A DNA stretch of 64,000 nt, from positions 11,893-75,892 of the forward strand of contig JBAQNU010000024.1 of assembly GCA_049304095.1 (NCBI GenBank), written 5' to 3'. The DNA is from Candidatus Moraniibacteriota bacterium. GTDB lineage: Bacteria > Patescibacteriota > Minisyncoccia > Moranbacterales > UBA2206. The position numbers were made by a program, and so were the translations under genes. Each line of letters starts with the position of its first letter. The first letter of the stretch is position 1. The notes below the pieces were generated by a model, which was not told the DNA's origin, made no database searches, and saw only the letters and a list, made by a program, of their open reading frames with translations. Of the stretch, positions 3,743 through 53,505 are shown in pieces.

Positions 3743-3961
3743 GGATGGAGAGCTAGGGATGGAGCGTGGAGTTGATTTTTAACAAGATATGAGTATATAA
3801 TAGAATCAACAATTCAGTGCCTAACCCTTGTGGGTAAAATCGCAAGGTATGGTATAAAAACCGTTCAAAGTATTAAGCTCTCCATCCAGAGCACTTTGAA
3901 CGGTCATATCTCGAAAGGGATATGGGTGACGCAAGTCATCGCTGGTGGGGAGCTTTGTGTT
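3743..3961 (+). ncRNA. Candidate structured RNA (copy A), conserved with copy B at 30584..30800
   Basis: Intergenic, with a 12-bp stem in which 3 bp are fully compensated between the copies (ccgTTCaaag/ctttGAAcgg versus ccgACTaaag/ctttAGTcgg). It also has a GAAA-capped 8-bp stem and a GCAA-capped stem that change compensatorily. The strand is assumed from gene context. Confidence 0.45.
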
Positions 3962-4016
3962 ATCTTACCAGCAAGAAATTGGTGGCTTTTTTAATTCACT
4001 AAAACCGACTAAAAAA

Positions 4017-5057
4017 ATGGAAACACAACAAAATGAAAAAACCAAGAAGTGTCCATATTGTGCAGAAGAAATTCGCACCGAGGCAATCAAATGTAAATAT
4101 TGCGGAAGTAGTTTGCTAAAGGAAAATATTTCACAACAAGAAACGCATATAACTAAAAAAACTGAGCCAATGGTGCGTCAAAGTTTTTGGACATTCTTGA
4201 GTGTCATCCTGGTATTATTGTTCCTTAGCCCAGCTATAATTATATTTTGGTATATCTCTGTGCCTCTAATTCTTTCTATTATAGCTTTTCTTATTACGAG
4301 GAAAACAAAACTAAATCGAAAAAACAAAATATTGATTGTAACTGCATCATTTATCATACCAGTCCTAATCGGAATACTTTATAACAATGCTTTAAATAGA
4401 AAGCCAGTCATTACCGTAAGTGAACCTCAAAATAACTCAACTGTTCAGGTATATAAGATTATTGTGAAAGGTAAAGTCGAACCAAAAGATGCTGAATTGA
4501 AAATAGATAATCACTTAGTTAGTACTGATGATGGAAAATTTTCTTACGAGATGCTGTTGCTGATGGAAAAAAATTCAATAACTATTGATGCTAAAAATGG
4601 CTCAAGTAATGAAAGCACTAAGTTGATTGTAAATAGAACTTTTACCGATGAAGAAAAAGTAGCGATTGAAAATAAAAGAAAAGAAGATGAATCAAGGAAG
4701 ATGGCAATTGCGGAGCAGGCAGAAAGGGATAGAGTTGTAAGCGAAGCACAAGCAGAAAAAGATAGGATAGCACAAGAAAAAATTCTTTTAGCAGAAGAAA
4801 TAGCCTATGAAAAAACTAAAGCTGGAAGAATTCACACAAAACACCTGGATTGGTCAAAGGAAGATTGCGAAAGATTGGCAAATAATAAAATCTGGATTGG
4901 GATGAGTTATGATATGCTCGTTGAATTATGGGGGAAGCCAAATTATGCCACTCCTTCAAATTATGGAAATGGAACAACTTGGCAATGGTGTTGGACATAT
5001 AATACACCTTCTTGTTTTTATGGTGATGCCGATGGAATAGTTGATAGCTATAATTAA
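4017..5057 (+). CDS. Zinc-ribbon (CPYC...KCKYC) membrane protein with a coiled-coil region
   Basis: Start moved to the Met at 4017 (METQQNEK), which aligns with METQNKK of the 30857 paralog. N-terminal CxxC-x9-CxxC, two or more TM helices, and a Glu/Ala/Lys-rich coiled coil. Confidence 0.55.
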
Positions 5058-17927: not shown

Positions 17928-18192
17928 CCCACGAATCACCTCCTTTCTAGGGAGAATTTGGTAATAATCGAGAGCACGGCACGCGAAGACTTCTGGTGTC
18001 ATCATCAAGAGTTGTGAAGTGTGATTATTGCCCGCTGGTCGACTCCAATTTATTGGAGAACAGCAATGCCTAGCAGAGCTAACAGAATCTGTAGTAAGTT
18101 TTGTACAACTTACGGATAAACTCTAGGACTAATCGCAATAGGTTGTGATACATATACTTTTTGCAAGCAAGAACACCTTAAATGGTGTTTTT
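17928..18192 (+). ncRNA. Conserved ~250-nt non-coding element (copy A2) that begins with an anti-SD-like CACCTCCTTTCT and ends in a terminator; paralog at 53271..53505
   Basis: Blocks shared with the 53271 copy: AATCACCTCCTTTCTAGGGAGA, CCCGCTGGTCG, AATCTGTAG, GGACTAATCGCAA. Ends in an AACACC/GGTGTT+T6 terminator. Confidence 0.35.
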
Positions 18193-18260
18193 TGCGTTAT
18201 TTGATTAGAAACGCTTGATTAGAGGGAGATTTTATTACCTCTACTCCGCTTCGCTTTTTA

Positions 18261-18283
18261 GGGCTACTTCTAGCCCTTTTTTG
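18261..18283 (+). terminator. Rho-independent terminator
   Basis: GGGCTA-CTTC-TAGCCC followed by TTTTTT. Confidence 0.55.
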
Positions 18284-18372
18284 CTATGCGCTCCGTTCCC
18301 CGCTGGAGTGGATAAGTCGGCCTTGACTCTGTGTGCCACGAAGCTAATGTGTCATTGCCTTAATAAAAATAT

Positions 18373-18573
18373 ATGACCAAAGCTAAATTCATAGCCTTCG
18401 AAAAAGTCAGACGCAGTGGGCTGACTAATATGTATGACATCACTCAGGTTAGGCTCATCGCCATCAAATACGGACAGATGCTTACCAACAAAGATTGCTT
18501 TGACTGTATGCTCAACTATGACAAATATCGCCGAAAATATTTAGAAGATAAATCAATATGGAAAAAACAATAA
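18373..18573 (+). CDS. Small hypothetical protein overlapping the integrase start
   Basis: ORF only. Confidence 0.2.
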   Translation: MTKAKFIAFEKVRRSGLTNMYDITQVRLIAIKYGQMLTNKDCFDCMLNYDKYRRKYLEDKSIWKKQ

Positions 18574-19442
18574 AAAATACCACTGAAGAATTTCTGGGAT
18601 GGTTGCAGGTCGAGAGACGATTCGCGCAGAGTTCTATAATCAGCTATCGCTCCCGGCTGAAATGCATCGTCAGGGACATTGGGGATATTGAAATAAAAGA
18701 TATTACCACAGAACATATTTTTAAGCTCAAATCCATTCTTTACGAAAGAGAAAATTCTGAAGTTTTCACTGGAGTGGTAATGGCATCAATCAAGGGGCTA
18801 TTGCTCTACTCCAGAGACCTGCTAAAAATCCCTCTTCAGATTGATCCCGGCACAATAACTATTCCCAAGCGCAAAAAGAAGGAAGTCGTTTATCTGACAG
18901 TTGAGGAAATCAATAGATTTCGAAGCAGTATCGACATTAGTAAAAATTGCGGACTCAGATTCAGGACATTGATCGAAGTGCTTTTGGGAACCGCCTGTCG
19001 CATTTCAGAATGCCTTAGTCTCAACCGCGATTCAATTTCGCTGATCGAAAAAGAAGCGAGAATAATTGGCAAAGGCGGAAAACAGCGCGTCCTATATTTC
19101 AATGACGAGTCGCTTTACTGGATAGACAAATATCTAAAAACTAGGACGGACAAATATCCGTCTCTTTTTATAACCACAGGCGAACAGCCAAAACGATTAA
19201 CCAATCAGGACTTGAGTCGCTATTTCAAAAGACAAAGGCTTCTGGCTGGTATTTCCAAAAAGGTCACCCCACACATTTGCCGACACACGGCCGCAACAAC
19301 AATGGCGATGAATAACTGCTCAGCTATCTTTATCAAGGAAATCCTCGGCCATAGTCGGCTTCAAACTTCGATTGATTACTATATTTCACTGGCTGACAAG
19401 CAAAAGGTGAAACAAGCGCACCAGACATTTCTGGTGTATTAA
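18558..19442 (+). CDS. Tyrosine recombinase/integrase
   Basis: HICRHTAATT...ILGHSRLQTSIDYY. Confidence 0.8.
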   Translation: MEKTIKNTTEEFLGWLQVERRFAQSSIISYRSRLKCIVRDIGDIEIKDITTEHIFKLKSILYERENSEVFTGVVMASIKGLLLYSRDLLKIPLQIDPGTITIPKRKKKEVVYLTVEEINRFRSSIDISKNCGLRFRTLIEVLLGTACRISECLSLNRDSISLIEKEARIIGKGGKQRVLYFNDESLYWIDKYLKTRTDKYPSLFITTGEQPKRLTNQDLSRYFKRQRLLAGISKKVTPHICRHTAATTMAMNNCSAIFIKEILGHSRLQTSIDYYISLADKQKVKQAHQTFLVY

Positions 19443-20581: not shown

Positions 20582-21547
20582 ATGATTTCCATATTTTCCG
20601 ACAACTTAAACCTTTCTGACAGTTTTGACCGCTTCTTTGAGGATATTGAGGCGAATTGTTCGCTGTCCAAAAGTTCAATCGAAAAATACAAGGAAATCCG
20701 TCCCCGGATAATTAAATTCTTTGGCAATATAAGCATAAAGAAGATTGATGCTCGGATGATTACTAAATATAAGCAGTATTTGAATCAATCAAGTCAGAAG
20801 AAAGACAACCTCAGTCCCAGTTATAAAAATCAGCACCTGACATTACTCCGTTTGCTTCTGAAATTTGTGAAGGAAAAAGAAGGCGCAAAGGTGATGGATT
20901 ATGCTCAGATTTCCAAGTTCCGAGTTCCAATTAAGGAGGTTGAGACATTGAATGAGTCGGAGTTGTCCACGGTGCTTGACTACCCAAATGAGAAAACAAT
21001 TACTGGGTGTCGACTGAAGGCATATTTTGAAGTTTCATTTTCAACCGGCTGTCGCGTGAAAGAAGTTTTGGGCTTGAAGATATCGGATATTAATTTCAAA
21101 GACAGGATTGCTCACATTCGGACGAAAAATAACAAACCTCACACCATTTTGTTTTCCGATTCCTCAATTGAAGCGATTAACAAATATTTGGCTATGAGGA
21201 AAGATAATCATCCAAATTTATTCGTGACTGCAACTCCCAATCCCAAACCATGGCAAACCAACGATGTTGAAAGGAGTCTTCGAATGATCGGACGAAAACT
21301 GAAGCTTAGTAAGAATCTCAGACCACATATTTTACGCAAATCAGCCGCGACGCACATGTATAAAAACAACGTTTCGCTCGGAGTCGTGCAAAATTTTTTA
21401 AACCATTCCTCCGCCAGAACCACGCTGACTTACTATTTAGGCAATTCGAATTTTGAAGAGCTAAGAAGGAATCACGACAGAGTTATGAATAATCTGGATT
21501 TTAGAGATAAGACAGATTCATCTGGAGAGGGGGTGAGAACTACATGA
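20582..21547 (+). CDS. Tyrosine recombinase/integrase
   Basis: HILRKSAATHMY...FLNHSSARTTLTYY. Confidence 0.8.
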   Translation: MISIFSDNLNLSDSFDRFFEDIEANCSLSKSSIEKYKEIRPRIIKFFGNISIKKIDARMITKYKQYLNQSSQKKDNLSPSYKNQHLTLLRLLLKFVKEKEGAKVMDYAQISKFRVPIKEVETLNESELSTVLDYPNEKTITGCRLKAYFEVSFSTGCRVKEVLGLKISDINFKDRIAHIRTKNNKPHTILFSDSSIEAINKYLAMRKDNHPNLFVTATPNPKPWQTNDVERSLRMIGRKLKLSKNLRPHILRKSAATHMYKNNVSLGVVQNFLNHSSARTTLTYYLGNSNFEELRRNHDRVMNNLDFRDKTDSSGEGVRTT

Positions 21548-26927: not shown

Positions 26928-27467
26928 ATGGCTGAAAGTAAAAAACCAGTATTGATGGGACCGAAAACAGAAGAGGGGATAAAAAAGGTTACCCAGAATC
27001 TCAAAAGAGAATCGGTCTTAAAGTCGGGCGGATTCGCCTTTTTGAAGTCCGGTTTAGCCCCAAACTGCCAAAGCTGTATCTTTAGCCACGAGTGCGAGCA
27101 TTACGCGCCTGAAGCCAAATTTTGCCGAGCAGTGCTGGAATTTGAGAGCCAATTGGAGGACCAAATTATGGCTTTGCCCCAGATTCAGGAAATAGACCGC
27201 ATTTTGGTCAAAAGGCTCGTGAGAAACTATGGCTTCCTATATATCACGGATAAGTGGTTAGCCAAAGCCTCTCCGTTCCTATTGGAAAACAAGCAGTTTG
27301 ATTTTCAGCCAATCCTGAAAACCAGGACAGTTTATGAGCGCCTCATAATCCACTTCTGCAGTGCTTTAGGATTAACTCCGGAAGCTAGAAGCAGAATCGG
27401 ACTGAATGTGGCACAGACATATAGTTTGGCTAAAGAATTAAGCGAACTGGAATATGACGAAGATTAA
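26928..27467 (+). CDS. Phage terminase small-subunit-like protein (paralog of 56..655)
   Basis: Conserved motifs and position relative to terL; overlaps the terL start. Confidence 0.45.
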   Translation: MAESKKPVLMGPKTEEGIKKVTQNLKRESVLKSGGFAFLKSGLAPNCQSCIFSHECEHYAPEAKFCRAVLEFESQLEDQIMALPQIQEIDRILVKRLVRNYGFLYITDKWLAKASPFLLENKQFDFQPILKTRTVYERLIIHFCSALGLTPEARSRIGLNVAQTYSLAKELSELEYDED

Positions 27468-28992
27468 ACCCATCACCAGAGAAAAACTGATTGAATACAA
27501 AAAAGACATTGTTGTCTTTCTTCAGGAACAATACATCCTAGAAGATGGTAAGCCGATTAAACTGGAGGAATTTCAAAAGAAAATCCTCAGAGATATTTTC
27601 CAGACCAAAAATACAAATGGTTTCAGGAAATACAACCTGGTTTTGATTGGCGTGCCAAAAAAGAATGGAAAATCCACGATGGCATCGGCAGTGGCTTTGT
27701 ATTCCTTGTTTACTGAAATGAACGGCGAAGTTTACGGAGCGGCAGGCGACAAGGATCAGGCCAAAATTATTTTCCAGATGACCAAGCGAGCCATTGAAAG
27801 AAATCCCATTTTGCTTGATTCAGTGAGAATCTACAAAGATGAAATTGTGGTTCCCAGCACAAACAGTGTCTATCGCGTTCTCTCCGCTGACGCCCCAACT
27901 GCCCATGGTTTGAATCCCTCCTGCGTGATTTTCGATGAACTTTGGAATCAACCCAATCGTGACCTGTATGACGCGCTAACGCAAAGTCCAGTCCGAAAAG
28001 AACCGCTGACTTTTGTGGTAACTTACGCCGGAACAGACCAGACCAGTTTGCTCTATGACATCTATCAGACAGGAATGCAAAAGCGAGACTCCAAAATGTA
28101 TTTTTTCTGGAGTGAAAATAATTTGGCGAGCTGGGTGAATGAGGAATATCTGGAACAGCAACGGATGCGTCTGCCAGCTGGAGTGTATCAACGACTCCAT
28201 GAGAACAAGTGGGTGCAGGGTGAAAATGCGTTCATTCAAAAATCGGAAGTGGAAGCCTGTAAAGATTATGCTTTGAAGCCCCAGCTTAACGGCAGGGAAA
28301 ATATAAAGTATTATCTGGCAGTGGATTTGGGATTAATCCGCGACAGAACAGTTTTGACGATTTGCCACAAAGATAAAAATGATAACCTTATTTATCTCGA
28401 CTTCATCAAAACTTATCAAGGCACCAAAAAGAACCCGGTGCTCATCAGCGACATTGAGTCGGATATCCTTTGGGCGAATCAAAATTTCAACATCAGAAAA
28501 GCCATTTTGGATATCTGGCAGATGAAAAACAGCGCCCAGAAATTAAAAAGGATGGGAGTGAGAATAGAAGAATTTACATTCACATCAAGCACTATTCAGA
28601 AATTATCCCAGAACCTCTTCTACTTGTTTCATAATTCTCTCATCAGAATTTTCCCTTGCAAATTGCTGGAAGATGAACTACTGAGTCTGAACGCCGAAGA
28701 AAAATCGTATGGTTGGAGATTGGATCATAAGTCGGGAGGATTTTCTGACCATGTCATAAGTCTTGGGATGAGCAGTATGTTCGCCATCCAAGATGAACGG
28801 GCGAGTGCTGGAGTGCTCATTTCCGAAAGTCCAACTTTTGAAGAGTTCGAAGCCCAGCTCAAAAAAGAGGAACAGTTACGAGGCAAGGTCATTGAAGCAG
28901 GAGTAAAGAAGCCAGAACATATTAAACCTAAACAATCCTTTCCCACACTCAAAGAGTTGGAAGAGTTTCGGGCAAGGAAATACATTCTATGA
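27454..28992 (+). CDS. Phage terminase large subunit
   Basis: PKKNGKSTMASAVA P-loop, VIFDELWN, and a nuclease-domain C-terminus; paralog of 627..2165. Confidence 0.75.
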   Translation: MTKIKPITREKLIEYKKDIVVFLQEQYILEDGKPIKLEEFQKKILRDIFQTKNTNGFRKYNLVLIGVPKKNGKSTMASAVALYSLFTEMNGEVYGAAGDKDQAKIIFQMTKRAIERNPILLDSVRIYKDEIVVPSTNSVYRVLSADAPTAHGLNPSCVIFDELWNQPNRDLYDALTQSPVRKEPLTFVVTYAGTDQTSLLYDIYQTGMQKRDSKMYFFWSENNLASWVNEEYLEQQRMRLPAGVYQRLHENKWVQGENAFIQKSEVEACKDYALKPQLNGRENIKYYLAVDLGLIRDRTVLTICHKDKNDNLIYLDFIKTYQGTKKNPVLISDIESDILWANQNFNIRKAILDIWQMKNSAQKLKRMGVRIEEFTFTSSTIQKLSQNLFYLFHNSLIRIFPCKLLEDELLSLNAEEKSYGWRLDHKSGGFSDHVISLGMSSMFAIQDERASAGVLISESPTFEEFEAQLKKEEQLRGKVIEAGVKKPEHIKPKQSFPTLKELEEFRARKYIL

Positions 28993-29093
28993 AGACCAAA
29001 ACCCAGTCGCTGTTATCGTCCCTGTTTATATCGGCATTATTCGCAACATTCATTTGGACAATGTATGAGCGCTATTGCCAAACAGTCAGATAA
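28989..29093 (+). CDS. Conserved 34-aa single-TM micro-protein coupled to terL (paralog of 2162..2260)
   Basis: ATGA overlap with the terL stop. MKTKTQSLLSSLFISALFATFIW hydrophobic helix. Confidence 0.4.
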   Translation: MKTKTQSLLSSLFISALFATFIWTMYERYCQTVR

Positions 29094-29134
29094 TAGCTGT
29101 TGTCAGTCCCTTTTAATTTGTAATTTTAACCAAA

Positions 29135-29629
29135 ATGATAATCATTCAATTTTTACGAGAAGTGAGCGCGGGAAGATTCTTCCATAATTTGAAAGATGTG
29201 AAGAAAATTCATCCAGTTTTTAAGCGGTATATTTCAGAAGTTGGTGAGGATAAGTATCTTATTAAAGACGATGAGAAAATAGTGGCAGAGTGTCGTTTTG
29301 ATATTTCTGATTTGGAAATGCTTTGCGAAGCGCGATTCTATAATCTAAAAGGCGACCAAGAGTCGCTAAAAAAACTGATTGTTTTTACTCTTCCCAGATA
29401 TATTGATGAACGAGCTTTCATTGCCGACAGCAACGGTCTGGGATATTACTTCGATGCCACCAATCATTTCCTGATTGACGGTGATAAGTATTATTTAATC
29501 GGCAATGATGATGAAAAGCTAATTCCCATTGAGCATTACCGCCTGCCGATAGAAGTGAAAAGGGAAGATTGGCAGGAAAAGCTGAAGAATCTCTTGGAAA
29601 AAGCCAAAAGCCAAGGAGTGGATAAGTAG
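29135..29629 (+). CDS. Hypothetical protein (paralog of 2335..2787)
   Basis: Conserved synteny and shared motifs. Confidence 0.5.
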   Translation: MIIIQFLREVSAGRFFHNLKDVKKIHPVFKRYISEVGEDKYLIKDDEKIVAECRFDISDLEMLCEARFYNLKGDQESLKKLIVFTLPRYIDERAFIADSNGLGYYFDATNHFLIDGDKYYLIGNDDEKLIPIEHYRLPIEVKREDWQEKLKNLLEKAKSQGVDK

Positions 29630-29687
29630 GCCTTGATAGTATTCCCCAAAGAGCTATGGTGTGTCCATAAGTTAAGAGTAAAACAAA

Positions 29688-30539
29688 ATGGATCATATCA
29701 AAGACTATTTGGATTACCTGAAACTGGAGCGGTGCTTAAGCGAGCACACGGTCAGGGTCTACAAAAACAATCTGCATGAGTTTCGTGATTATTTAGGAAA
29801 GAGCGGTTCAATTAGGGCGACAAAGAGGAAAGACATCCGAGCCTTCCTCTTTTCGTTAGCCAATCAGCCGATTACCAAAAGATTGAAACAAACGACCCTG
29901 CGAAATTTCTTCAGATTCTTGGAAGACGAAAATATCATCAGAGATAATCCGATGAAAAATCTGCCGATGCCCAAAGTAATCAGCCGTGAGCCAAGTTATC
30001 TTTCAGAATTAGAAGTCAGGAAATTGATTGGCGCGGTGGAAAAGGATGAGTCCAAGTTTCAACCAAGAAACGAGGTGGCAGTTAGGATTTTAGCCGAGAC
30101 AGGCTTTCGACTCAGTGAATTGACCAATATAAGCCTCAACGACATCAATTTGGAAAACAAAACCATCCGTATTAGGCGGAAAGGCAATGTGGAACAGGTT
30201 GTGCCGATTAACAAAAGACTAGCCAAATTATTGAAAGTATTTATGAAGGGCAAAAAACCAAATGAACCGCTGATCAAAAGCAGTCTGGGGAAAAGAATGA
30301 CTGCGAGGAGGGTTTCTTTGATGCTTCAGAAGTATTTGGAAAAAGCCGGAGTAGCAAGAAAAGGAATATCAGTCCATAGCCTTCGTCACAGCTATTGTGT
30401 GAGGCTTTTGGAAAAAGGGGCGAGTCTCCGGGCGACTCAGATTTTGCTCGGACATAAATCTATTGCTACGACGGAAAGATATATGCATCTCACTAAAAAT
30501 CAGCTGGCGAAGGAAGTGAAGCTGTCCCAGATAGATTGA
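29688..30539 (+). CDS. Tyrosine recombinase/integrase (paralog of 2836..3687)
   Basis: HSLRHSYCVRLL...LLGHKSIATTERYMH. Confidence 0.85.
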   Translation: MDHIKDYLDYLKLERCLSEHTVRVYKNNLHEFRDYLGKSGSIRATKRKDIRAFLFSLANQPITKRLKQTTLRNFFRFLEDENIIRDNPMKNLPMPKVISREPSYLSELEVRKLIGAVEKDESKFQPRNEVAVRILAETGFRLSELTNISLNDINLENKTIRIRRKGNVEQVVPINKRLAKLLKVFMKGKKPNEPLIKSSLGKRMTARRVSLMLQKYLEKAGVARKGISVHSLRHSYCVRLLEKGASLRATQILLGHKSIATTERYMHLTKNQLAKEVKLSQID

Positions 30540-30583
30540 CCGGAGTTCTTTGAAAACTAAAAAAAGAAAACCGATAAGTTAAT

Positions 30584-30800
30584 GGATGGAGAGACAGGAT
30601 GGACGGGTTGATTTTCGCCGATATAAATGTAATAATAAAATCAACAATTAAATGCCTAACCCTTGTGAGTAAAATCGCAAGGTATGGTATGAAAACCGAC
30701 TAAAGTGTATTAAGCTCTCCATCCAGAGCACTTTAGTCGGTCATGTCTCGAAAGGGATATGGGTGTCCGCAAGGACATCGCTGGTGGGGAGCTTTGTGTT
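30584..30800 (+). ncRNA. Candidate structured RNA (copy B)
   Basis: See copy A. About 85% nucleotide identity, with compensatory substitutions in three helices and conserved GNRA loops. Confidence 0.45.
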
Positions 30801-30856
30801 TTTCTGCCAGCGAAAACTGGCAGTTTTTTAATTCATTAAAAAAACCGACTAAAAAA

Positions 30857-31801
30857 ATGGAAACACAAAACAAGAAGTGCCAATTTTGCGGAGAAGAAAT
30901 TCTTGCAGAAGCTAAAAAATGCAAACACTGCGGAGAATGGCTGGAGACAGGACACGAGCCAGTTAAAAATTCCAAGAGTAAAGTAGTCGCCTTTTTATTG
31001 GCTTGGCTTTTGGGAGGACTGGGAGCGCACAAGTTTTATCTGGGAAAAACAGGACAAGGTTTTCTGTATTTGATATTTTGTTGGACGCTGATTCCATCGT
31101 TTGTCGCTTTCTTTGAAGGCATCGGATACATCGCCAGCAGTGATGAAAAATTTGCGAGCAAATATATCAATGGTTCAAATAATAATGAAAACAAGAAAGA
31201 AAGTTCTTTCAAGAAAATACTGCTGGCAGTGATAATCGCGGTGGGTGCTTTCTCAATACTGCTGGTTGTGATCGGCAATTCAATGGACGAGGTTGAAAAG
31301 AAAAAGAACGAGGCTGTTGTCCAGCCAGCGGAAACTCCAAAGCAGGAAACAGCACCGATTGAAACTGCCCAGGAAAAAATCGTGAGCTATCGGGAATTGA
31401 AGAGCTATGAAAAATCTGGCAAGACCTGGAAAAGCATAGTCATCCCTCCCAAAACTTCTCAGGCAGATTTGATCGCATTGGCTAAAGATCTGCACAAAAA
31501 AGATGCCAAGAGCTATTTTCACATTTTTGACGATGATGCCAAATTTCAGGAATATATGGATTGGGATATAAATTATGGGAAGGTGAGGGATAAAGACGGA
31601 AAAGTAAAAACGATAGATCAATGTTCAGATATGAATTATTGCCAATCGCTTGTCCAACAACAAAAATATGCCTATCCCTTTCCAGAGGCATGGAGTGACA
31701 AACACGAGATTGCCATGATCAACGAGATGCTCGACATCAGCAGTGGAATGATGAAGTGGAAGCTGTCCAGTCCGCTGGGAATTGAAATAGTGGGGTTATA
31801 G
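30857..31801 (+). CDS. Zinc-ribbon plus TM2-domain membrane protein
   Basis: Start moved to the Met at 30857. [18 protein letters not shown] ribbon and the TM2 signature [13 protein letters not shown]. Confidence 0.55.
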
Positions 31802-31811
31802 GCTAAGAAAA

Positions 31812-31838
31812 CCGGGGCGAAATGCCTCGGTTTTGTTA
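31812..31838 (+). terminator. Rho-independent terminator
   Basis: CCGGGGC-GAAAT-GCCTCGG (one G-U pair) followed by TTTTGTT. Confidence 0.55.
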
Positions 31839-31970
31839 TGCGGTGGCATCATTTACCCAACTTCAGATAAAAGTCGCACAAATCGCAGAATTTGGCGAAA
31901 TTTAGGCTCTAAAACCCTTTACCAGAGGTCTGTTTTCTGCTAAAATTGAAGAATAAATGAGGTAAAAACG

Positions 31971-33290
31971 ATGAAGCAGAAAACCGCTCTGGACATTTTG
32001 AAATTGGGACACAATGTGTTCCTGACAGGCCCCGCCGGAAGCGGGAAAACTTTTTTATTGAACCAATATATCGATTATCTCAAAAGCAAAAATATCGGAG
32101 TGGCGGTGACAGCCTCCACTGGAATTGCCGCGACTCACATGAACGGGCAAACCATCCACAGCTGGTCAGGAATGGGCATCAAGGATGATCTGACTCAAGG
32201 GGATTTGCATAAACTCAAAGGCAAATTCTATTATCGCAAACGCTTTGCCAAAACTGGCGTCCTTATCATAGACGAAATATCCATGCTTCATGCTCATCAG
32301 TTGGATATGGTCAACAAAGTTTGCAAACTTTTCAAAGACCCATTCTTGCCATTTGGCGGATTGCAGGTAATTTTATGCGGAGATTTTTTTCAGCTTCCGC
32401 CAGTTGCCAAAGAAAACCAAAAATCCAAGTTTGTAATTGAGTCTTTGGCTTGGCAGGAAATGAATCCGCAAATCTGTTATCTGGAAGAACAATACCGCCA
32501 AGAGGATGAAAAGATGACTAAAATTCTTAATGCCATCAGAAACCAGCAGGTGGATGATAAGATTTTGGGTTTAGTTTTGACGAGAGAAAATAAGCCGATC
32601 AGAAGCGATATTTATCCGACTAGGCTTTTTACTCACAACGCCAATGTGGATGCTATCAATAATTTAGAGCTGGACAGAATCAAAGAAAAACCTTTAGCCT
32701 ACAAGATGCACTCGGACGGCAATGAAAAATTGGTGAACATCATCAAAAAAGGATGCCTTGCTCCGGAACGGCTAGTGCTGAAAATTGGAGCGATGGTGAT
32801 GTTTGTCAAAAACAATTTTGATCGCGGTTATGTTAACGGCACCTTAGGAAAAATCATTGGCTTTGACGAAAACAAATTGCCGATAGTGGAAACTTTTTCA
32901 GGAAAGGAAATTGTAGCGACTCCAGAAAAATGGGCGATTGAAGAAGATGATATAGTGATCGCATCTATCACTCAAATTCCACTTCGTTTGGCTTGGGCAA
33001 TTACGGTTCACAAAAGTCAGGGAATGACACTGGACGCGGTGGAAATGGATTTGAGCAAATCATTCGAATACGGAATGGGATATGTGGCGTTGTCGCGCCT
33101 GCGAACTTTGGATGGTATAAAGCTTTTGGGAATCAATGAAACCGCGCTAGAAGTTAATCCTGAAATTTGCGAACTGGACAAAACACTTCAGGAGTTATCT
33201 GAAGCCAGTGTGGTGGAAGTATCAAGCTTAAGCTGGTTTAATAAGAGGACGAAGCAGAAGGAGTTTGTGAAGAAGGTTTCAAAGATTTAG
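31971..33290 (+). CDS. PIF1/RecD-like SF1 DNA helicase
   Basis: Walker A LTGPAGSGKTF, Walker B VLIIDEISM, and TVHKSQGMTLD helicase motif. Confidence 0.7.
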   Translation: MKQKTALDILKLGHNVFLTGPAGSGKTFLLNQYIDYLKSKNIGVAVTASTGIAATHMNGQTIHSWSGMGIKDDLTQGDLHKLKGKFYYRKRFAKTGVLIIDEISMLHAHQLDMVNKVCKLFKDPFLPFGGLQVILCGDFFQLPPVAKENQKSKFVIESLAWQEMNPQICYLEEQYRQEDEKMTKILNAIRNQQVDDKILGLVLTRENKPIRSDIYPTRLFTHNANVDAINNLELDRIKEKPLAYKMHSDGNEKLVNIIKKGCLAPERLVLKIGAMVMFVKNNFDRGYVNGTLGKIIGFDENKLPIVETFSGKEIVATPEKWAIEEDDIVIASITQIPLRLAWAITVHKSQGMTLDAVEMDLSKSFEYGMGYVALSRLRTLDGIKLLGINETALEVNPEICELDKTLQELSEASVVEVSSLSWFNKRTKQKEFVKKVSKI

Positions 33291-33392
33291 AGTCGGTGGC
33301 TTTTTCAAGCATTTGGGCTTAAGACAGTATTATTGACTAGTTTCCTTAATATGGTATACTGTAAATAATCATCTAAACCAACTTAAGAATAT

Positions 33393-34340
33393 ATGCAATA
33401 TTTAGACAAAAAAATCCAAAAAAGAATTGATGACAAATTGAAGTTGCTGAATTCTTTTCGTCCACTGCCATCCTCTGCAGTTAAAAAACTCAGGGAACAA
33501 TTTGAAGTGGAAATGACCTATAATTCCAATGCGATTGAGGGTAACAGTTTGACTCTCAAAGAAACCTATCTGGTCATCAATGAGGGCATAACCATCAAAG
33601 GCAAGCCACTAAAGGATCATCTTGAGGCTAAAAGCCACAAGGAGGCTTTGGACTATTTGTATTCACTGGTGGAAAGCGGAAAGAACAATACCGTGTCGGA
33701 AAGGTTTATTAGATCGCTGAATCAAATCGTGATGCAAGATATTGATAAAGAATGGGCGGGAAAATACCGAAACAGCGGGGTGATTATTGGTGGAGCGGAT
33801 CACAAACCGCCGGAAGCTTTAGAGATTCCGAGACTGATGCAAAATCTTATCAGTTGGGTCGGGGATAACAGTAAGAAAAAAATGCACCCAGTGGAATTAG
33901 CCAGTATTTTGCACCACAAGTTGGTCTATATCCATCCCTTTTTTGACGGCAACGGCCGGACTTCACGCTTGACGATGAATATTGTTCTGATGCAGTCAGG
34001 ATTTCCCCTGGTAATTGTCTTAAAGAATGATCGCAAAAGATATTATCGGTCGCTGTCTCTGGCAGATAAGGGCGACTATGTTCCGTTTGTGAACTTCATT
34101 GCTCGGGCGGTGGAGAGAACATTGGATATTTATCTGAAAATACTAATGCCAAGCAAGAAAGGCAAAGAGGAATTTATCCCGTTGGCAGAATTAGCCAAGG
34201 ATACAAAATTTACGGAAAAATATCTGAATCAACTGGCTCGCAGTGGAAAACTGGAGGCGCACAAGGAAGGACGCAATTGGCTTACCTCCAAAGATGCACT
34301 GAAAAGATATTTGGACAGCAGGGAAAGAAAGAGGAAATAA
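33393..34340 (+). CDS. Fic/DOC family protein (AMPylase-like) with a C-terminal HTH
   Basis: Canonical Fic motif HPFFDGNGRTSR. Confidence 0.8.
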   Translation: MQYLDKKIQKRIDDKLKLLNSFRPLPSSAVKKLREQFEVEMTYNSNAIEGNSLTLKETYLVINEGITIKGKPLKDHLEAKSHKEALDYLYSLVESGKNNTVSERFIRSLNQIVMQDIDKEWAGKYRNSGVIIGGADHKPPEALEIPRLMQNLISWVGDNSKKKMHPVELASILHHKLVYIHPFFDGNGRTSRLTMNIVLMQSGFPLVIVLKNDRKRYYRSLSLADKGDYVPFVNFIARAVERTLDIYLKILMPSKKGKEEFIPLAELAKDTKFTEKYLNQLARSGKLEAHKEGRNWLTSKDALKRYLDSRERKRK

Positions 34341-34352
34341 TCTTCGAATTCA

Positions 34353-35276
34353 ATGGCAATCTATGAATCGCAAATTAATACCTGGGCAAATCAAGGAGCG
34401 ACAGTAAGTGCTGCCGCTACTTATACTTCGGTAAAAGCAGCTCTTGAACACGAAAAATCTCCCATAAAGGAACTTATTGCAAATAAAAAAGTAATTGTTT
34501 ATCTTCAGGGTTCATACAGAAATGGAACTAATATCCGTGGCGACAGCGACGTGGATATTATCGTTGAATTGAAAAAAACTTTCGGACACGATTTATCCAG
34601 TCTTTCCAAAGAAGAGGCGATCCATCATGAATTATCCCATAGCCCGGCTACTTATACTTGGAAAGATTTTCGTTTGGACGTAATCAAAGCGCTGGAAAGT
34701 TATTACGGAAAACTTCTTGTTGATTCTAGCGGTAATAAATCAATAAAATTGTTGCCGACATCCGGCAGAATTAAAGCCGATATTGTTCCAGTTATTCACT
34801 TTAGAAAATATTGGTCATTCAGTGGGTCGAATGATTATCTGGCGGAAGAAGGCATAAAATTTTATCACCTGAAATCTGGACATGCTATCGTGAATTATCC
34901 AAAACATCATTATGATAATGGCGTTGAGAAAAATGATAAAAACAGAACAGCTGGATTATTCAAGCCATCTGTCAGGGTTTTCAAAAATGCACGAGAATAT
35001 CTCATTGACAAGAGATTAATCACTGGCGACATTGCTCCGTCCTATTTTTTGCAGAGCCTTATTTATAATGTTCCGGACAGTTGTTTTTGCAACAGCAATC
35101 ACGATACCTACTTCAATGTTCTCAAACATCTTTATGAAAATTCTCTGGATGAATTTATTTGTCAGAATGAACAGACGCTGCTTTTCGGAGATACACAGGA
35201 GCAATGGAAAAAAGATGATGCGGAAAAGTTTATTGCTAATCTTGTTTATCTTTGGGATAACTGGGAAACGATATGA
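34353..35276 (+). CDS. Minimal Pol-beta-fold nucleotidyltransferase, SMODS/CD-NTase-like
   Basis: GS(x9)DSDVD(h) and the downstream acidic residue in KADIVPV form the G[SG]...[DE]x[DE]...[DE] triad. About 300 aa with a helical C-terminal half. Confidence 0.55.
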   Translation: MAIYESQINTWANQGATVSAAATYTSVKAALEHEKSPIKELIANKKVIVYLQGSYRNGTNIRGDSDVDIIVELKKTFGHDLSSLSKEEAIHHELSHSPATYTWKDFRLDVIKALESYYGKLLVDSSGNKSIKLLPTSGRIKADIVPVIHFRKYWSFSGSNDYLAEEGIKFYHLKSGHAIVNYPKHHYDNGVEKNDKNRTAGLFKPSVRVFKNAREYLIDKRLITGDIAPSYFLQSLIYNVPDSCFCNSNHDTYFNVLKHLYENSLDEFICQNEQTLLFGDTQEQWKKDDAEKFIANLVYLWDNWETI

Positions 35277-35863
35277 TGCACCCCTATTCAACGAATACCA
35301 ATGAAAGAAAAATAATCCCTTTCTATCTTGCTTGTATAGCTATTGTTTTAACCTGGGGAATGAGCGCAATTCTTGCAAAACTGCAAATTTCTTTTCCTTG
35401 GTGGGCAAGCGCGCCATCAGTTATGGGAATATACGGTCTACTATATAGCGTATTTGACAAATTTATTTGGCGAAAACCCTTTTTGAAAAAATTGGGGATA
35501 ATTAAAACCCCGGATATTTCAGGAAAATGGAGGGGGAAGCTACAATCATCTTTCAATTCTCAAGATTTCGTAAATACTGATGTTAAAATATCTCAAACCT
35601 GGACAGAAATTGAAATTTTACTAAAGACCGATAATTCTTGTTCAAATAGTACGGTTGCTTCAATAATGGTAGGGGTTTCAAATAATGCCTCGCTTCATTA
35701 TCAGTATCAGAATAATCCCAAATCAAGTTCTGTTGATAGCATGCAAATCCATTATGGAACAACTTATTTATCCTGTTCTGGTGATAAATTAGAGGGCGAG
35801 TATTATTCTGGGCGTGGTCGTCAGAATATTGGAAGCATAGAACTGCACAAGGTTATTGAATAA
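35273..35863 (+). CDS. 2-TM membrane protein (SLATT-like candidate effector) overlapping the nucleotidyltransferase gene
   Basis: 4-nt overlap with the upstream gene. Two N-terminal TM helices and a ~130-aa C-terminal domain. Confidence 0.4.
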   Translation: MMHPYSTNTNERKIIPFYLACIAIVLTWGMSAILAKLQISFPWWASAPSVMGIYGLLYSVFDKFIWRKPFLKKLGIIKTPDISGKWRGKLQSSFNSQDFVNTDVKISQTWTEIEILLKTDNSCSNSTVASIMVGVSNNASLHYQYQNNPKSSSVDSMQIHYGTTYLSCSGDKLEGEYYSGRGRQNIGSIELHKVIE

Positions 35864-35871
35864 GAAAAACT

Positions 35872-36597
35872 ATGCAACCAGCCTACAATTTAGACAAAAT
35901 CAAATTCGCCACAGATCCGCCTACTTTTGAAAAGGCGGTGGCTTTGTATGAAAGCGGTAAAGTGACGGAATTTAAGGAGGGCATTGGTGCGTATTCTGCC
36001 ATAGTCGCAGGAACGAAACCTTATCGAGTATCTGTTGAAGCTCGGCGATTTGGATTGGCTACTTGCACTTGTTATCTTGGGCAGAATGACACGCTTTGCA
36101 AACATATGGTGGCCGTATCAATTTATGCGGTTATGCGAGGCAAGAAAATAAAGCCGGAAGACGCGAAGGTATTCAGTAGTTCGGTATGCAGTGGAAAACT
36201 TGGAAAATTAAGTGAGGAAGAATTAAAGAAAATTAAACAAGAAATTACTTCAGCTCTAAAATATATCAAGGCATATAGCGGCCCATCACGAACATGGTTT
36301 GCTTATCAGGCTTCGCTTTCAGAAGGATGCAATCGTTTGGCTAAAATTGTTTCCGAATTGCCAGCTGGCGAACAAACCGCAGAATTATTGGTCAGCCTCC
36401 TTTTGCGTCTGGATAAAAAACTGTGCACTGGAGGTGTGGATGATTCGGACGGTACTGTTGGCGGATTTATAGAAGAAGTTGTGGTTGTGCTTCAGGAATA
36501 TGCGAAGCTTGATCCGGAATGCAAGAAGGCTCTCGTTGTTCTGGAAAAAACAGAGACTTGTTTCGGGTGGGAAGAACCGCTTTTGAAATTGAAATAG
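35872..36597 (+). CDS. SWIM zinc-finger domain protein
   Basis: CTCYLGQNDTLCKHMVAV matches CxCxnCxH. Confidence 0.55.
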   Translation: MQPAYNLDKIKFATDPPTFEKAVALYESGKVTEFKEGIGAYSAIVAGTKPYRVSVEARRFGLATCTCYLGQNDTLCKHMVAVSIYAVMRGKKIKPEDAKVFSSSVCSGKLGKLSEEELKKIKQEITSALKYIKAYSGPSRTWFAYQASLSEGCNRLAKIVSELPAGEQTAELLVSLLLRLDKKLCTGGVDDSDGTVGGFIEEVVVVLQEYAKLDPECKKALVVLEKTETCFGWEEPLLKLK

Positions 36598-36817
36598 TCT
36601 CAATAAAATAAAAAACGCGTCATTTTGAACCGGCTTTGTAGAAAAGGGAATTACTTCCCCAGCAAGCAAAAAAGTCAGTTTTTTTATGGATAAATAAGCC
36701 TGTTTTAAGCTATATTTGACGATTTAGTGGACAGGTCGATTTGACAAATAATTGATATTACGGCATACTGAAAGTAGCTTACCTATCGGTAAGTGAGTAA
36801 AGACTAACTGGAAAATT

Positions 36818-37405
36818 ATGAAAACAATCGCGAAACAACCGGAGGATATTGTTCAAGACACTAAGAAATATATTATTGACACGGCTCGTCAGTTTTTTTC
36901 TGAATATAGTTATTTGGGCGTTTCAATGAGTGATATCGCCAAAAAACTAAATATTACCAAAGCAGCGCTTTATTATCATTTTACAGGTAAGGCTGAGATT
37001 TATAAAAAAGTGCTGGATGAGGTTTTTAATGATTTAAGTCTGACTATTTCTGAAGCAAAAAACGAAACCATGGTCGACAAAAAATTATACAAACTGATTA
37101 AAAATTACTTGGATTTTGGATTTAAAGAAAAGAATCTTATTAAATCCATAGTACTAAAACTATCGCCGGCCGATAGACAAATAACAAAGCACGTCACTCA
37201 ATTAAGAGAAAGAACCGCTAACCTAATTCAACCTGTGATTGAGGAAACATTTGCGGGTAAAAAACTAACTAAAAAAGTTGATAGTCAGCTTCTGACTTCT
37301 ATGCTTACCGGCATGATGGACGGTTTGCTTCTGGAATATTCTTTTTTAAATAAAAAAGTTGATTCAAAAAAAATAGCAGATCAAATTATCGCCGTTTTAT
37401 TTTAA
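36818..37405 (+). CDS. TetR-family transcriptional regulator
   Basis: HTH GVSMSDIAKKLNITKAALYYHF. Confidence 0.7.
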   Translation: MKTIAKQPEDIVQDTKKYIIDTARQFFSEYSYLGVSMSDIAKKLNITKAALYYHFTGKAEIYKKVLDEVFNDLSLTISEAKNETMVDKKLYKLIKNYLDFGFKEKNLIKSIVLKLSPADRQITKHVTQLRERTANLIQPVIEETFAGKKLTKKVDSQLLTSMLTGMMDGLLLEYSFLNKKVDSKKIADQIIAVLF

Positions 37406-37412
37406 AATTGAT

Positions 37413-38516
37413 ATGCACAAAGAATATAAACCGATAAAATTTCCAGAAGACGAATCTGCTCATGACTCTATTGTCGAATGGTGGTATTTCAACGGCCACT
37501 TGAAAGATAATGACGGCAACGAATATTCCTATATGGATTGCTTATTCAAGGTGGATGTAAAAAAAGTAAAGATACCTTTTCTAAGCAAAATTCCGCTCAA
37601 AACATCCTACTTCTCACATTCACTCGTTTCAGACATAAATAATAAAAGTTTTCAGCATAGAATAGCTCCCTTTTCCGTTGTTTCCGATGACAGTTTTTCC
37701 AAATCCTTGCTTCATATAAATTACATCAATCCGGAAATAAAAAACGGTTACACTAACTGTGTTATTGAAAAAACAGGCGAATCAAAATACCACCTGAAAA
37801 ATGAGGATATTGATTTAAAATTAACTTCAGTCAGGCATCCTCTGCTGGAGGGCGGGAAAGGATTTCTCGATCTGGGAACCAAGACAACCTATTATTATTC
37901 TCTAACCAACCTGAGAACGGAAGGCCGGATAAAAATTAAAAATAAATGGGTGGACGTTACTGGCAAGTCCTGGATGGATCATCAGTGGGCGGATGCCAGC
38001 TATTCCAAAGATAGATGGGATTGGTTTTCAGTGCAATTGGATAATGATACGGAAATAGTTTGTTTTATGTATGATGACGGCCAGAAAAAAACTTTTTTAG
38101 CTGACATTTCTTATCCCGATGGCAGGCAGGAACATCATAGCAATGTTGAAATTATTCCCCTGAAAAGGCATTGGACAAGTCCAAAAAGCAAGGCGGTTTA
38201 TCCGATGTTATGGAAAATTAAAATACCGGCAAAAGATATACACTTGATTCTTTCGGCAAAAATTGAAAATCAGGAAATGCTGTTCGGCTCAATCAATTAT
38301 TGGGAGGGATCGCTCAATGTCAGCGGATTGTTTGAAGACAAAAACGTAAACGGCGTTGGTTTTATGGAACTGGTCGGTTATCCGTCTCAATATAACAGTG
38401 CAAAATATATTAAGGATGAAATAGAAAAAACAGCCAGCCGGGTTATTTCGTCTATGAAAAATAAAGCCTTGACCTTAGCGGGCAATGTAAAAAATAGTTT
38501 TACGGAATCAGATTAA
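37413..38516 (+). CDS. AttH/CrtC-like lipocalin-domain protein
   Basis: HDSIVEWWYFNGHL signature. ABC efflux genes lie downstream, as in AttFGH clusters. Confidence 0.45.
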   Translation: MHKEYKPIKFPEDESAHDSIVEWWYFNGHLKDNDGNEYSYMDCLFKVDVKKVKIPFLSKIPLKTSYFSHSLVSDINNKSFQHRIAPFSVVSDDSFSKSLLHINYINPEIKNGYTNCVIEKTGESKYHLKNEDIDLKLTSVRHPLLEGGKGFLDLGTKTTYYYSLTNLRTEGRIKIKNKWVDVTGKSWMDHQWADASYSKDRWDWFSVQLDNDTEIVCFMYDDGQKKTFLADISYPDGRQEHHSNVEIIPLKRHWTSPKSKAVYPMLWKIKIPAKDIHLILSAKIENQEMLFGSINYWEGSLNVSGLFEDKNVNGVGFMELVGYPSQYNSAKYIKDEIEKTASRVISSMKNKALTLAGNVKNSFTESD

Positions 38517-38520
38517 AATT

Positions 38521-39366
38521 ATGGCAAAATTAAAACGACCGAAAATCGGTTTGGCGTTGGGAAGCGGCGGTCCCAGGGGACTGGCGCATATCGGCGTAAT
38601 TAAAATTCTGGAAGAAAATAATATTCCGATTGATTTTATCGCCGGCTCAAGTATCGGCGCTATGGTTGGAGGATTTTATGCCGCTACCAAGGATATAAGG
38701 CAAGTGGAAGAGATAGCGCTGGGAACCAACTGGAAAATGATTTTAGCATTGATTGATCCTTCCTTTCGCCAGGGATTGCTGGGAGGAAAAAAGGTAAACA
38801 CTTTTATTGAGGATCATATTGATAAAATGGATTTCAGTGATTTAAAGGTTCCTCTTTCGGTAGTGGCGACAAATTTTAAGAATGGCGATGCAGTTATTAT
38901 AAACAAAGGCGATGTTGCCTCCGCAATCAGAGCCAGTATTTCTTTGCCATTAGTTTTTAAGCCCGTAGAGCGTGACGGAAAAATGTTGGCCGATGGTGGA
39001 TTGTCCTTGCCTGTTCCTGTCGAAGTAGTGAGAAAAATGGGAGCGGACTTGGTAATCGCGGTTAATTTGGATGCCGATTATTTTGCCGATAACAATAATG
39101 AAAACAATAGATTCGGTTTTTATAAAATGGCTGAAAATTCAATCAACCTCTTGCGCCATCACCTGGCTCATCGGAATGTCGAAAATGCCGATATTATTAT
39201 TAATCCTCGTGTTGGAAATGCGCATTGGGGGAAATTTCTGGACGGAAAAGATATAATTTCGGCCGGAGAAAAAGCGACAAAAATAAAATTATCGCAATTG
39301 AAGGAATCAATGCATCAGGAAAACAAGGACGTTTTGAGTAAATTTTTAGATTTTCTTAAATTATAA
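38521..39366 (+). CDS. Patatin-like phospholipase
   Basis: GSGGPRG oxyanion motif and GSSIG nucleophile elbow. Confidence 0.75.
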   Translation: MAKLKRPKIGLALGSGGPRGLAHIGVIKILEENNIPIDFIAGSSIGAMVGGFYAATKDIRQVEEIALGTNWKMILALIDPSFRQGLLGGKKVNTFIEDHIDKMDFSDLKVPLSVVATNFKNGDAVIINKGDVASAIRASISLPLVFKPVERDGKMLADGGLSLPVPVEVVRKMGADLVIAVNLDADYFADNNNENNRFGFYKMAENSINLLRHHLAHRNVENADIIINPRVGNAHWGKFLDGKDIISAGEKATKIKLSQLKESMHQENKDVLSKFLDFLKL

Positions 39367-52626: not shown

Positions 52627-53238
52627 ATGGAATCGAAAATAAAGAAAATTCTTGAAAGAATAGATTTGCTAAATGAAGCGTTAAGAAAAGAATATTCGCA
52701 GCTTGGGAAAAAATACGGATTTCTGATAAAACAGCGGAAGGTTATATTTTTAGAAAAAATCAGGGAAAGAAACAAAAAACTTCGCATACCTGCTTGGAAA
52801 TACGCTATTCCAAAAAGTATCCGTCACTTTCTTTCCATGCCCTTTATTTATATGATGATTTTCCCTGTAGTGATCCTGGACATATTCATCACTGTTTATC
52901 ATTGGGCCGCTTTTCCTCTGTATGGTATTCCGAAAGTCAAAAGAAGGGAATATATAGTTTACGACAGAAAGTTTCTTGATTATCTTAATGTTATCCAAAA
53001 AGTGAATTGTCTGTATTGCAGTTATGCAAACGGTTTCTTTGCTTATTCTTTGGAGATTGCGGCCCGGACAGAAAGATATTGGTGTCCGATTAAAGCTGCC
53101 CATAAACCGAAAGTTTATCATAATTGGTACAAGGATTTTGCCGATTACGGAAATCCCGAGGAGTGGAATCATAAATTCAACGACCAAAAAGCCTTTGAAG
53201 AATTGAAAAAAATATCTTCGGAAAAACAAAACAAATAA
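52627..53238 (+). CDS. Hypothetical protein
   Basis: ORF with one hydrophobic segment and Cys/His pairs. Confidence 0.4.
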   Translation: MESKIKKILERIDLLNEALRKEYSQLGKKYGFLIKQRKVIFLEKIRERNKKLRIPAWKYAIPKSIRHFLSMPFIYMMIFPVVILDIFITVYHWAAFPLYGIPKVKRREYIVYDRKFLDYLNVIQKVNCLYCSYANGFFAYSLEIAARTERYWCPIKAAHKPKVYHNWYKDFADYGNPEEWNHKFNDQKAFEELKKISSEKQNK

Positions 53239-53270
53239 AAACAATTTAAGCATTTCCAAAATTTGCCGAC

Positions 53271-53505
53271 AATCACCTCCTTTCTAGGGAGATATTGGTA
53301 AAATCGTAGAGCATTACACGCAAAGACACTCGGGTCAAACCAAGTGTTGTGGAATGTGGATTTTACCCGCTGGTCGTACCCGCCTCATCGGCGGAAACAG
53401 CAAAGGCCTAACAGAGCAAAATAATCTGTAGATGTAGGACTTGTACAGCTTACACATAGATTCGATTTTGGACTAATCGCAAAAGGTTGAGATATACACT
53501 TTTGG
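53271..53505 (+). ncRNA. Second copy (B2) of the conserved ~250-nt non-coding element
   Basis: Begins AATCACCTCCTTTCTAGGGAGA; see 17928..18192. Confidence 0.35.

Follow-up and report, generated by a model that had tools for sequence, protein, structure and literature searches.

The genes cdnE and cap15 lie side by side on a 64,000-nt stretch of a Candidatus Moraniibacteriota bacterium (GenBank assembly GCA_049304095.1, contig JBAQNU010000024.1, positions 11,893 to 75,892 of the forward strand), referred to here as the window and used as the source of all coordinates unless another sequence is named. Together they very probably constitute a canonical two-gene type I CBASS (antiphage signaling system based on cyclic oligonucleotides), type I-B in the Millman/Banh nomenclature. 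A preliminary description of the same DNA had proposed a minimal type I-like pair encoded by two plus-strand open reading frames (ORFs) overlapping by 4 nt. Both ORFs were recovered intact and at the positions first given (Table 1), and the proposal as a whole is upheld by profile matches to CBASS cyclases and effectors and by the recurrence of the pair in other genomes. At the junction (...ACG ATA TGA / ATG ATG CAC) the stop codon of cdnE and the start codon of cap15 share the bases ATGA. Since Cap15 homologues begin at MHPY in the family alignment, the second ATG, at 35276, may be the true cap15 start, and the overlap would then be 1 nt. Whichever ATG is used, the arrangement is that of two tightly, translationally coupled genes. 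No minus-strand ORF of the locus exceeds 94 aa, and all of them fall inside plus-strand genes. No match to E1/E2/JAB (Cap2/Cap3), HORMA, or TRIP13 was obtained with Pfam or PADLOC among the genes from 27454 to 39366, in keeping with the earlier observation that ancillary E1/E2/JAB and HORMA genes are missing. The family matches of the pair, about E=1e-107 for the cyclase and 1e-73 for the effector, are far beyond what profile searches would return by chance.

The cyclase aligns with the PADLOC CBASS cyclase model PDLC00788 from end to end (E=6.2e-107, positions 1-297 of a 297-position profile) and matches 20 other PADLOC cyclase models as well. Searched against all PDB sequences, it returned five significant matches, every one of them a CdnE enzyme: 6E0K (RmCdnE, from Rhodothermus marinus; E=1.4e-66), 7X4F (1.4e-35), 6E0M (2e-34), 7X4C, and 7X4A. 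Identity to RmCdnE is 45.8% over 284 aligned positions, and the C-terminal domain carries a precomputed PF26305 CD_NTase_C assignment. The preliminary description had recognized a Pol-beta nucleotidyltransferase triad of the kind found in SMODS proteins and nucleotidyltransferases resembling cGAS and DncV (CD-NTases). Its residues are present as G53-S54, D66/D68 (in GDSDVD), and D143 (in KADIVP), within a protein that CD-NTase profiles match over their full length. An alignment of 34 homologues showed no variation at G53, S54, D66, D68, or N181, with D143 conserved in at least 90%. From the PDB matches, together with the conserved lid-1 asparagine, the first gene probably encodes a clade-E CD-NTase.

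The lid residues allow a prediction of the nucleotide product. RmCdnE is the closest solved structure (6E0K/6E0L; Whiteley et al. 2019, as cited in PMC10442399) and has catalytic residues identical to those of the window cyclase, while 54% of aligned positions differ. Residues N166, C252, E265, and W267 of RmCdnE align to N181, C270, E283, and W285, giving the window enzyme N181 at lid-1 and an E283-Q-W285 (ExW) lid-3 region as in RmCdnE. RmCdnE makes 3'3'-cyclic UMP-AMP (3'3'-cUA); its lid-1 N166 hydrogen-bonds the acceptor uracil, with N166S giving cyclic AMP-AMP (cAA), and its residues C252 and E265 remain apart, so that a purine donor has space (PMC10442399). Di-pyrimidine CdnEs carry an (R/Q)xW motif instead (PMC10442399). 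Because N181, C270, and E283-Q-W285 match the specificity positions of RmCdnE, we predict with moderate confidence that the window cyclase makes a uracil-containing cyclic dinucleotide, probably 3'3'-cUMP-AMP. LpCdnE, EfCdnE, and ClCdnE, cyclic di-UMP synthases encoded with Cap15 (PMC10442399), are likewise type I, clade-E enzymes with a uracil-selecting lid-1 asparagine, but their (R/Q)xW lid-3 restricts the donor pocket to pyrimidines, whereas the window enzyme has the ExW of RmCdnE.

The second protein matches the Pfam domains Cap15_CD_rec (E=1.3e-31) and Cap15_TM (E=2.9e-13, residues 14-67) and the PADLOC CBASS 2TM effector model PDLC00703 (E=1.7e-73), and all 16 of its PADLOC matches are "2TM" models. 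A phmmer search of PDB sequences identified Yersinia aleksiciae Cap15 (YaCap15; 7N34, E=1.1e-11). An AlphaFold2 model built with 25 homologues (predicted local distance difference test score 92) has helices at residues 9-36 and 50-63 and eight strands between 84 and 193. The three best PDB matches to this model in Foldseek are all YaCap15, with 7N34/7N35 on top (7N34: E=1.5e-5, TM-score 0.80 normalized to the target, root-mean-square deviation 2.9 Å). The first transmembrane helix, at about residues 14-36, is strongly hydrophobic (hydropathy up to 2.07), and a C-terminal YYSGRxRQN motif is invariant across the Cap15 family alignment. By profile and modeled fold, the second gene is Cap15 (S-2TMbeta), with two predicted transmembrane helices and a beta-barrel cyclic-dinucleotide receptor domain. 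YaCap15 (7N34/7N35; Duncan-Lowey et al. 2021, as cited in PMC10442399 and PMC12657218) has the same architecture of two transmembrane helices and an eight-strand beta-barrel, although identity in the barrel is only ~24%. The preliminary description had called this protein a two-transmembrane effector of the SLATT type, and had counted a non-membrane partner as grounds against the pairing. The protein is a membrane protein, and the two helices and C-terminal domain stand; the SLATT identity is rejected, with Pfam, PADLOC, and Foldseek all pointing to Cap15. No SLATT family matched the effector in Pfam at E<=0.1, and the remaining marginal match was to DUF3528.

The pairing of the two genes extends across phyla. 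When one genome per species was scanned, the cyclase proved to have 465 relatives, and gene neighborhoods were examined in the best 80 loci, which are 41-56% identical and come from CPR (candidate phyla radiation) lineages, Chloroflexota, Acidobacteriota, Paenibacillus, cyanobacteria, and archaea. A recognizable Cap15 homologue adjoins the cyclase in 75 of these 80. Among the remaining five, L009 encodes a divergent 2TM-beta protein, L045 and L076 encode patatin effectors, and L011 and L025 are truncated contigs. PIF1, SWIM, and TM2 genes adjoin the cyclase in none of the 80 loci and Fic in one, at a distance of 7 kb; all four were rejected as components. With Cap15 conserved beside the cyclase and Fic, PIF1, SWIM, and TM2 not, the system is taken to be the two-gene pair. 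In the two Moraniibacteriota relatives closest to it (71% and 60% identity), CdnE-Cap15 is accompanied by neither Fic nor SWIM; its neighbors there are terminase, ParB-methylase, and S24-repressor genes. An identical cyclase protein is encoded on 21 metagenomic contigs, with one and the same local gene order at the six places shown.

Two further observations were made in this set. Locus L045 has a second CD-NTase-like gene along with its patatin, and L076 has an E1/JAB-like gene upstream along with its own; by gene content, these loci show that effectors and system types are swapped within a single lineage of cyclases. Separately, the CdnE-Cap15 cassettes of L007, L008, L010, L012, L013, L014, and L049 are 90-96% identical in nucleotide sequence, yet the metagenome-assembled genomes that carry them are labeled Paceibacterota, Saccharibacteria, and Nomurabacteria. 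Flanks of 4.6-6 kb, compared for two pairs, are 87-88% identical. This likeness indicates that the taxonomic labels are inconsistent or else that a mobile element is shared.

Our model of how the pair would act follows its characterized homologues, from which the nucleotide product, activation by infection, positive polarity, and membrane disruption are carried over. CdnE would be inactive until phage infection, upon which it would join two NTPs into a cyclic dinucleotide, likely one containing uracil (3'3'-cyclic UMP-AMP, as for RmCdnE). This molecule would bind the cytoplasmic beta-barrel of membrane-anchored Cap15, and Cap15 would oligomerize and disrupt the membrane, such that the infected cell would die before phage progeny mature (abortive infection). 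Ligand binding, oligomerization, and membrane permeabilization by Cap15 are described in PMC10686824, PMC10442399, and PMC12657218. The Ssc-CdnE03-Cap15 operon of Staphylococcus schleiferi (type I-B; Banh et al. 2023) provides phage defense, with activation by viral RNA (cabRNA) and Cap15-dependent membrane permeabilization (PMC10686824). By analogy, the infection cue for the window cyclase could be viral RNA, which we offer as a hypothesis. The two systems have the same two-gene order and no ancillary Cap genes, a likeness of architecture. They differ in host, a Firmicute against a CPR bacterium, and in product, Ssc-CdnE03 making cyclic GMP-AMP (cGAMP) where the lid residues of the window cyclase predict a uracil-containing molecule.

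To place the pair in its surroundings, the window was compared with a related element, L092/L093, in which genes are ordered MTase-ParB-TerS-TerL-Int-LOOT-...-PIF1-SWIM. By blastn, window positions 31889-33274 match L092 6588-7971 (80.5%) and positions 35861-36599 match L092 7990-8728 (81%), and L092 carries 18 nt where the window has a cassette encoding Fic, CdnE, and Cap15. The L092 PIF1 (89% amino acid identity to that of the window) directly abuts its SWIM gene (88%). Since nucleotide homology stops at 33274 and resumes at 35861, the CBASS pair is cargo in a discrete slot. The empty slot was seen in one related population, and the cassette may have been gained in the window or lost in L092. 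Fic, a PIF1-like helicase, and a SWIM protein had all been named at the outset as same-strand neighbors of the pair, and ORFs and Pfam matches confirm each of them. A patatin gene at 38521-39366 was considered as a CapV effector and rejected; it has weak partial matches to PADLOC CBASS phospholipases (E=5e-6), lies outside the cassette, and sits in a TetR/AttH/ABC cluster.

Table 1. Positions of the CBASS pair, its cassette and flanking genes, and the recombinase and LOOT RNA genes (window coordinates except where L092 is named).
Feature	Position	Strand	Details
cdnE	34353-35276	+	307 aa ORF, intact
cap15	35273-35863	+	196 aa ORF, intact
Cargo cassette (promoter-like site, Fic, cdnE, cap15)	33275-35860	+	2,586 bp, blastn against L092
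Sigma-70-like promoter candidate	33333-33360	+	TTGACT-16-TATACT with TG, 10/12 consensus matches, upstream of Fic
Fic-domain protein, C-terminal helix-turn-helix (HTH)	33393-34340	+	Pfam Fic E=3.5e-23, HTH_17 E=1e-4
PIF1/Dda-like SF1B helicase, left flank	31971-33290	+	Pfam PIF1 E=4.9e-38; PHROG Dda-like helicase E=8e-71
SWIM zinc-finger protein, right flank	35872-36597	+	241 aa; Pfam SWIM E=4.6e-6
Tyrosine recombinase gene 1	2836-3687		
Tyrosine recombinase gene 2	15301-16212		
Tyrosine recombinase gene 3	18558-19442		
Tyrosine recombinase gene 4	20582-21547		
Tyrosine recombinase gene 5	29688-30539		
LOOT RNA (Rfam RF03000)	3818-3940		Full-length, 101.6 bits
LOOT RNA (Rfam RF03000)	30653-30779		Full-length, 87.8 bits
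LOOT RNA (Rfam RF03000)	L092 4622-4746		Full-length, 88.4 bits

The Fic protein retains an intact HPFFDGNGRTSR active-site motif and has an N-terminal SNAIEG inhibitory-helix motif, which we take to signify class II-type autoinhibition; its C-terminal HTH is of the excisionase type. It resembles PADLOC SoFic (E=7e-37), PDC-S04, and the unannotated phage families phrog_11900 and phrog_5978, and against the NCBIfam SoFic model it scores 36 bits (cutoff 550). It is probably a separate Fic-type module that shares the cassette and does not recur as a partner of CBASS. The gaps between Fic, cdnE, cap15, and SWIM are 12, -4, and 8 nt. On the plus strand from cdnE to the end of SWIM, no terminator-like site passed the scan criteria, and the sole plus-strand terminator-like site within the cassette is a weak hairpin inside Fic (33995-34012). 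The candidate promoter upstream of Fic, the best match in the promoter scan, likely drives Fic-cdnE-cap15(-SWIM), and the four genes are probably co-transcribed. A second promoter match is found at 34312-34341, just upstream of cdnE; both promoters are candidates by consensus only.

Such close packing behind one good promoter-like site, with Fic and the CBASS pair inside the same indel cassette, would also be expected of a larger, non-canonical system in which Fic acts as a sensor or regulator, SWIM as a nucleic-acid-binding partner, or both act with CdnE-Cap15 as one transcription unit. Of 69 independent SWIM loci with an ORF upstream, 6 moreover encode a Fic protein with a winged HTH (Fic-wHTH) directly upstream of SWIM. 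The neighborhood counts speak against such a system, with SWIM never beside the cyclase and Fic found near it once in 80 loci, 7 kb off, and so do the nearest Moraniibacteriota pairs, which do without either gene. Two-gene CdnE-Cap15 operons are sufficient for defense (PMC10686824), and SWIM is found in hundreds of loci that are free of CBASS. We therefore regard a larger system as very unlikely.

Several points weigh against reading the pair as a canonical CBASS. The closest NCBIfam model to the cyclase, NF053871 (anti-phage nucleotidyltransferase, DS2_2), scores 303 bits, below its cutoff of 350. The second transmembrane helix of the effector is moderately hydrophobic, falling under the 1.2 threshold in a 19-residue Kyte-Doolittle window. 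The product prediction draws on four aligned residues only, at 46% overall identity, and the locus belongs to an uncultivated host and is known from sequence alone. Finally, the polarity of signaling cannot be read from the sequence of an S-2TMbeta effector by itself. With regard to the first point, "DS2_2" most likely denotes the cyclase of Liu-DS2/CBASS-DAC (PMC13069673), a system defined here by an above-cutoff cGAS-like cyclase, a patatin effector, and a diadenylate cyclase (DAC) gene. The window locus is not assigned to it, given the sub-cutoff score and the lack of a DAC gene.

The last point concerns an inverse guard of the Panoptes kind, in which the signal of the synthase constitutively keeps the effector inactive until a phage sponge or nuclease depletes it and releases the effector. 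The Panoptes effector OptE is, like Cap15, an S-2TMbeta protein, but it works with opposite polarity (PMC12657218), and the same Pfam Cap15 domains cover OptE and the window effector. Panoptes is, however, defined by an mCpol synthase (OptS), whereas the window synthase is, by its matches, a Pol-beta-fold clade-E CD-NTase, and the neighbors scanned gave no mCpol match. Where CdnE-Cap15 operons were put to the test, their signaling was positive (PMC10686824), and the cyclase and Cap15 form a conserved unit in 75 of 80 loci. The window locus shares its effector family with Panoptes and differs in synthase and predicted polarity; it is no member of that system, and an inverse guard at this locus appears highly improbable. 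Least probable, to the point of being effectively refuted by the matches, is that the first gene encodes an MNT/HEPN, AbiEii, or aminoglycoside nucleotidyltransferase (ANT) type of toxin-antitoxin or resistance enzyme beside an unrelated membrane protein, as the preliminary description had allowed: the generic Pfam NTP_transf_2 match (E=2.5e-6) and marginal NCBIfam matches to MntA (E=0.045; 13.6 bits, cutoff 60) and ANT(9) (E=0.005; 16.1 bits, cutoff 340) reflect the shared Pol-beta core only, no match to MntA, AbiEii, or ANT rises above cutoff, and the protein matches CD-NTases over its full length next to a bona fide Cap15.

The SWIM gene borders the cassette on its right. For its protein, 1,930 homologues were found, over 100 of which are 67-89% identical to it, and the best 80 of 440 metagenome relatives are 65-89% identical and come from many Parcubacteria lineages. 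Its neighbors are hypervariable, with no neighbor cluster exceeding about 10% at positions -4 to +4 across 83 loci. Recurrent neighbors include ArsR-like HTH, Fic-wHTH, HsdS, and NYN proteins, and several loci of the L092-L176 set hold two SWIM-cluster ORFs. SWIM as a chromosomal backbone gene at the edge of an island is not supported, as both flanks vary across the 83 loci. Nor is there evidence that it is a recognized phage gene: it had no PHROG match, and pattern scans of IMG/VR yielded no relatives. Its structure model gave no match to a solved fold.

The first 36.6 kb of the window, which includes the cassette, is a mosaic of mobile-element genes, with five tyrosine recombinase genes along its length. 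Two paralogous modules are present, each consisting of a TerS-like gene, a TerL-like gene, a small ORF, a recombinase, a LOOT RNA, and a zinc-ribbon membrane protein; the TerL-like copies are 54% identical and the recombinases 53%. A Toprim primase, a D12 methyltransferase, and ParB_N are also encoded within positions 1-31000, and no capsid or portal genes were detected there. The gene content of this region suggests tandem satellite-like or degraded elements. In the three cases of Table 1, which belong to diverged TerS-TerL-Int modules, the LOOT RNA closely follows a tyrosine recombinase gene on its 3' side, with a -10-like box upstream, a terminal hairpin and T-run whose stem changes are compensatory, and a zinc-ribbon membrane protein gene downstream. 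By these features, LOOT has the appearance of a small-RNA gene that is complete in itself and belongs to a CPR mobile element. The ORF calls at 3945-5057 and 30743-31801 probably start too early, overlapping the LOOT RNA. The main text of Weinberg 2017 holds no discussion of this RNA. Neither the TerL-like gene nor the LOOT core had a match in IMG/VR, and megablast of positions 30000-38000 against the phage database returned none.

Other features of the window were recorded alongside these. A second defense-like cargo block, at 6846-15228, follows the first TerS/TerL module and encodes an SF1 helicase fused to REase_MTES_1575 (PADLOC PDC-S37 E=2e-74, Hhe E=2e-35), an OLD-family AAA_15+TOPRIM protein (PADLOC Old E=8e-59, AriA, GajA), an ExoVII-large-subunit-like protein with an N-terminal HRDC, and a HEPN protein. 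A 57-nt repeat (D6) occurs at 17934-17990 and 53271-53327, and its minus strand reads AGAAAGGAGGTGATT, with a strong Shine-Dalgarno sequence. The copy at 53271 precedes a minus-strand ORF (52750-53259), and the copy at 17934 has no following ORF; it lies in a 1.25 kb gap (17305-18558) with few ORFs and no Rfam match. The repeat was considered as a 16S 3' end and rejected in favor of the minus-strand Shine-Dalgarno sequence. Three direct-repeat copies of 67-131 nt, 79-88% identical, are found between 57443 and 59826 upstream of plus-strand ORFs at 57686, 59085, and 59816, and contain a TTGAC...TATGCTACAAAT promoter-like segment.

Defense hotspots in cargo slots of P4-like and phage-inducible chromosomal island (PICI) satellites and prophages were reportedly described by Rousset and colleagues and by Fillol-Salom and colleagues, both in 2022. 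As in those hotspots, the cassette in the window is a block of defense genes that fills a discrete slot, with conserved genes on either side and integrase and terminase genes close by. The carrier here differs in being a CPR element not described before, which has TerS/TerL-like genes together with a tyrosine recombinase and its own LOOT gene; capsid and portal genes were not detected in it. We tentatively propose, as a possibility that falls short of being the probable case, that Fic+CdnE+Cap15 is swappable cargo of a PIF1-SWIM slot in a family of such integrative satellite-like elements.

For CBASS biology as such, the window pair adds little. CdnE+Cap15 operons have already been characterized experimentally (PMC10686824, PMC10442399), the pair is itself standard, and tools of the PADLOC type would call the locus automatically. 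Surveys of the CPR defensome have been made, and CBASS is one of the accessory defense families listed in their groundwater catalogue (PMC12259885). The presence of an abortive-infection CBASS in a Moraniibacteriota genome of ~1 Mb is ecologically interesting, as it would entail the suicide of an episymbiont cell. The locus also offers a clean natural case in which a defense cassette has been gained or lost exactly where two conserved genes meet. Compared with the CBASS pair, its carrier and the neighboring SWIM gene are more unusual: the highly conserved SWIM protein marks hypervariable islands in CPR, and the surroundings point to an unstudied CPR element in which the orphan LOOT RNA is combined with a recombinase and terminase-like genes. 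If the proposed carrier is real, it would represent a defense hotspot analogous to those of P4 and PICI in ultra-small episymbiotic bacteria, and would give the LOOT RNA its first genomic context.

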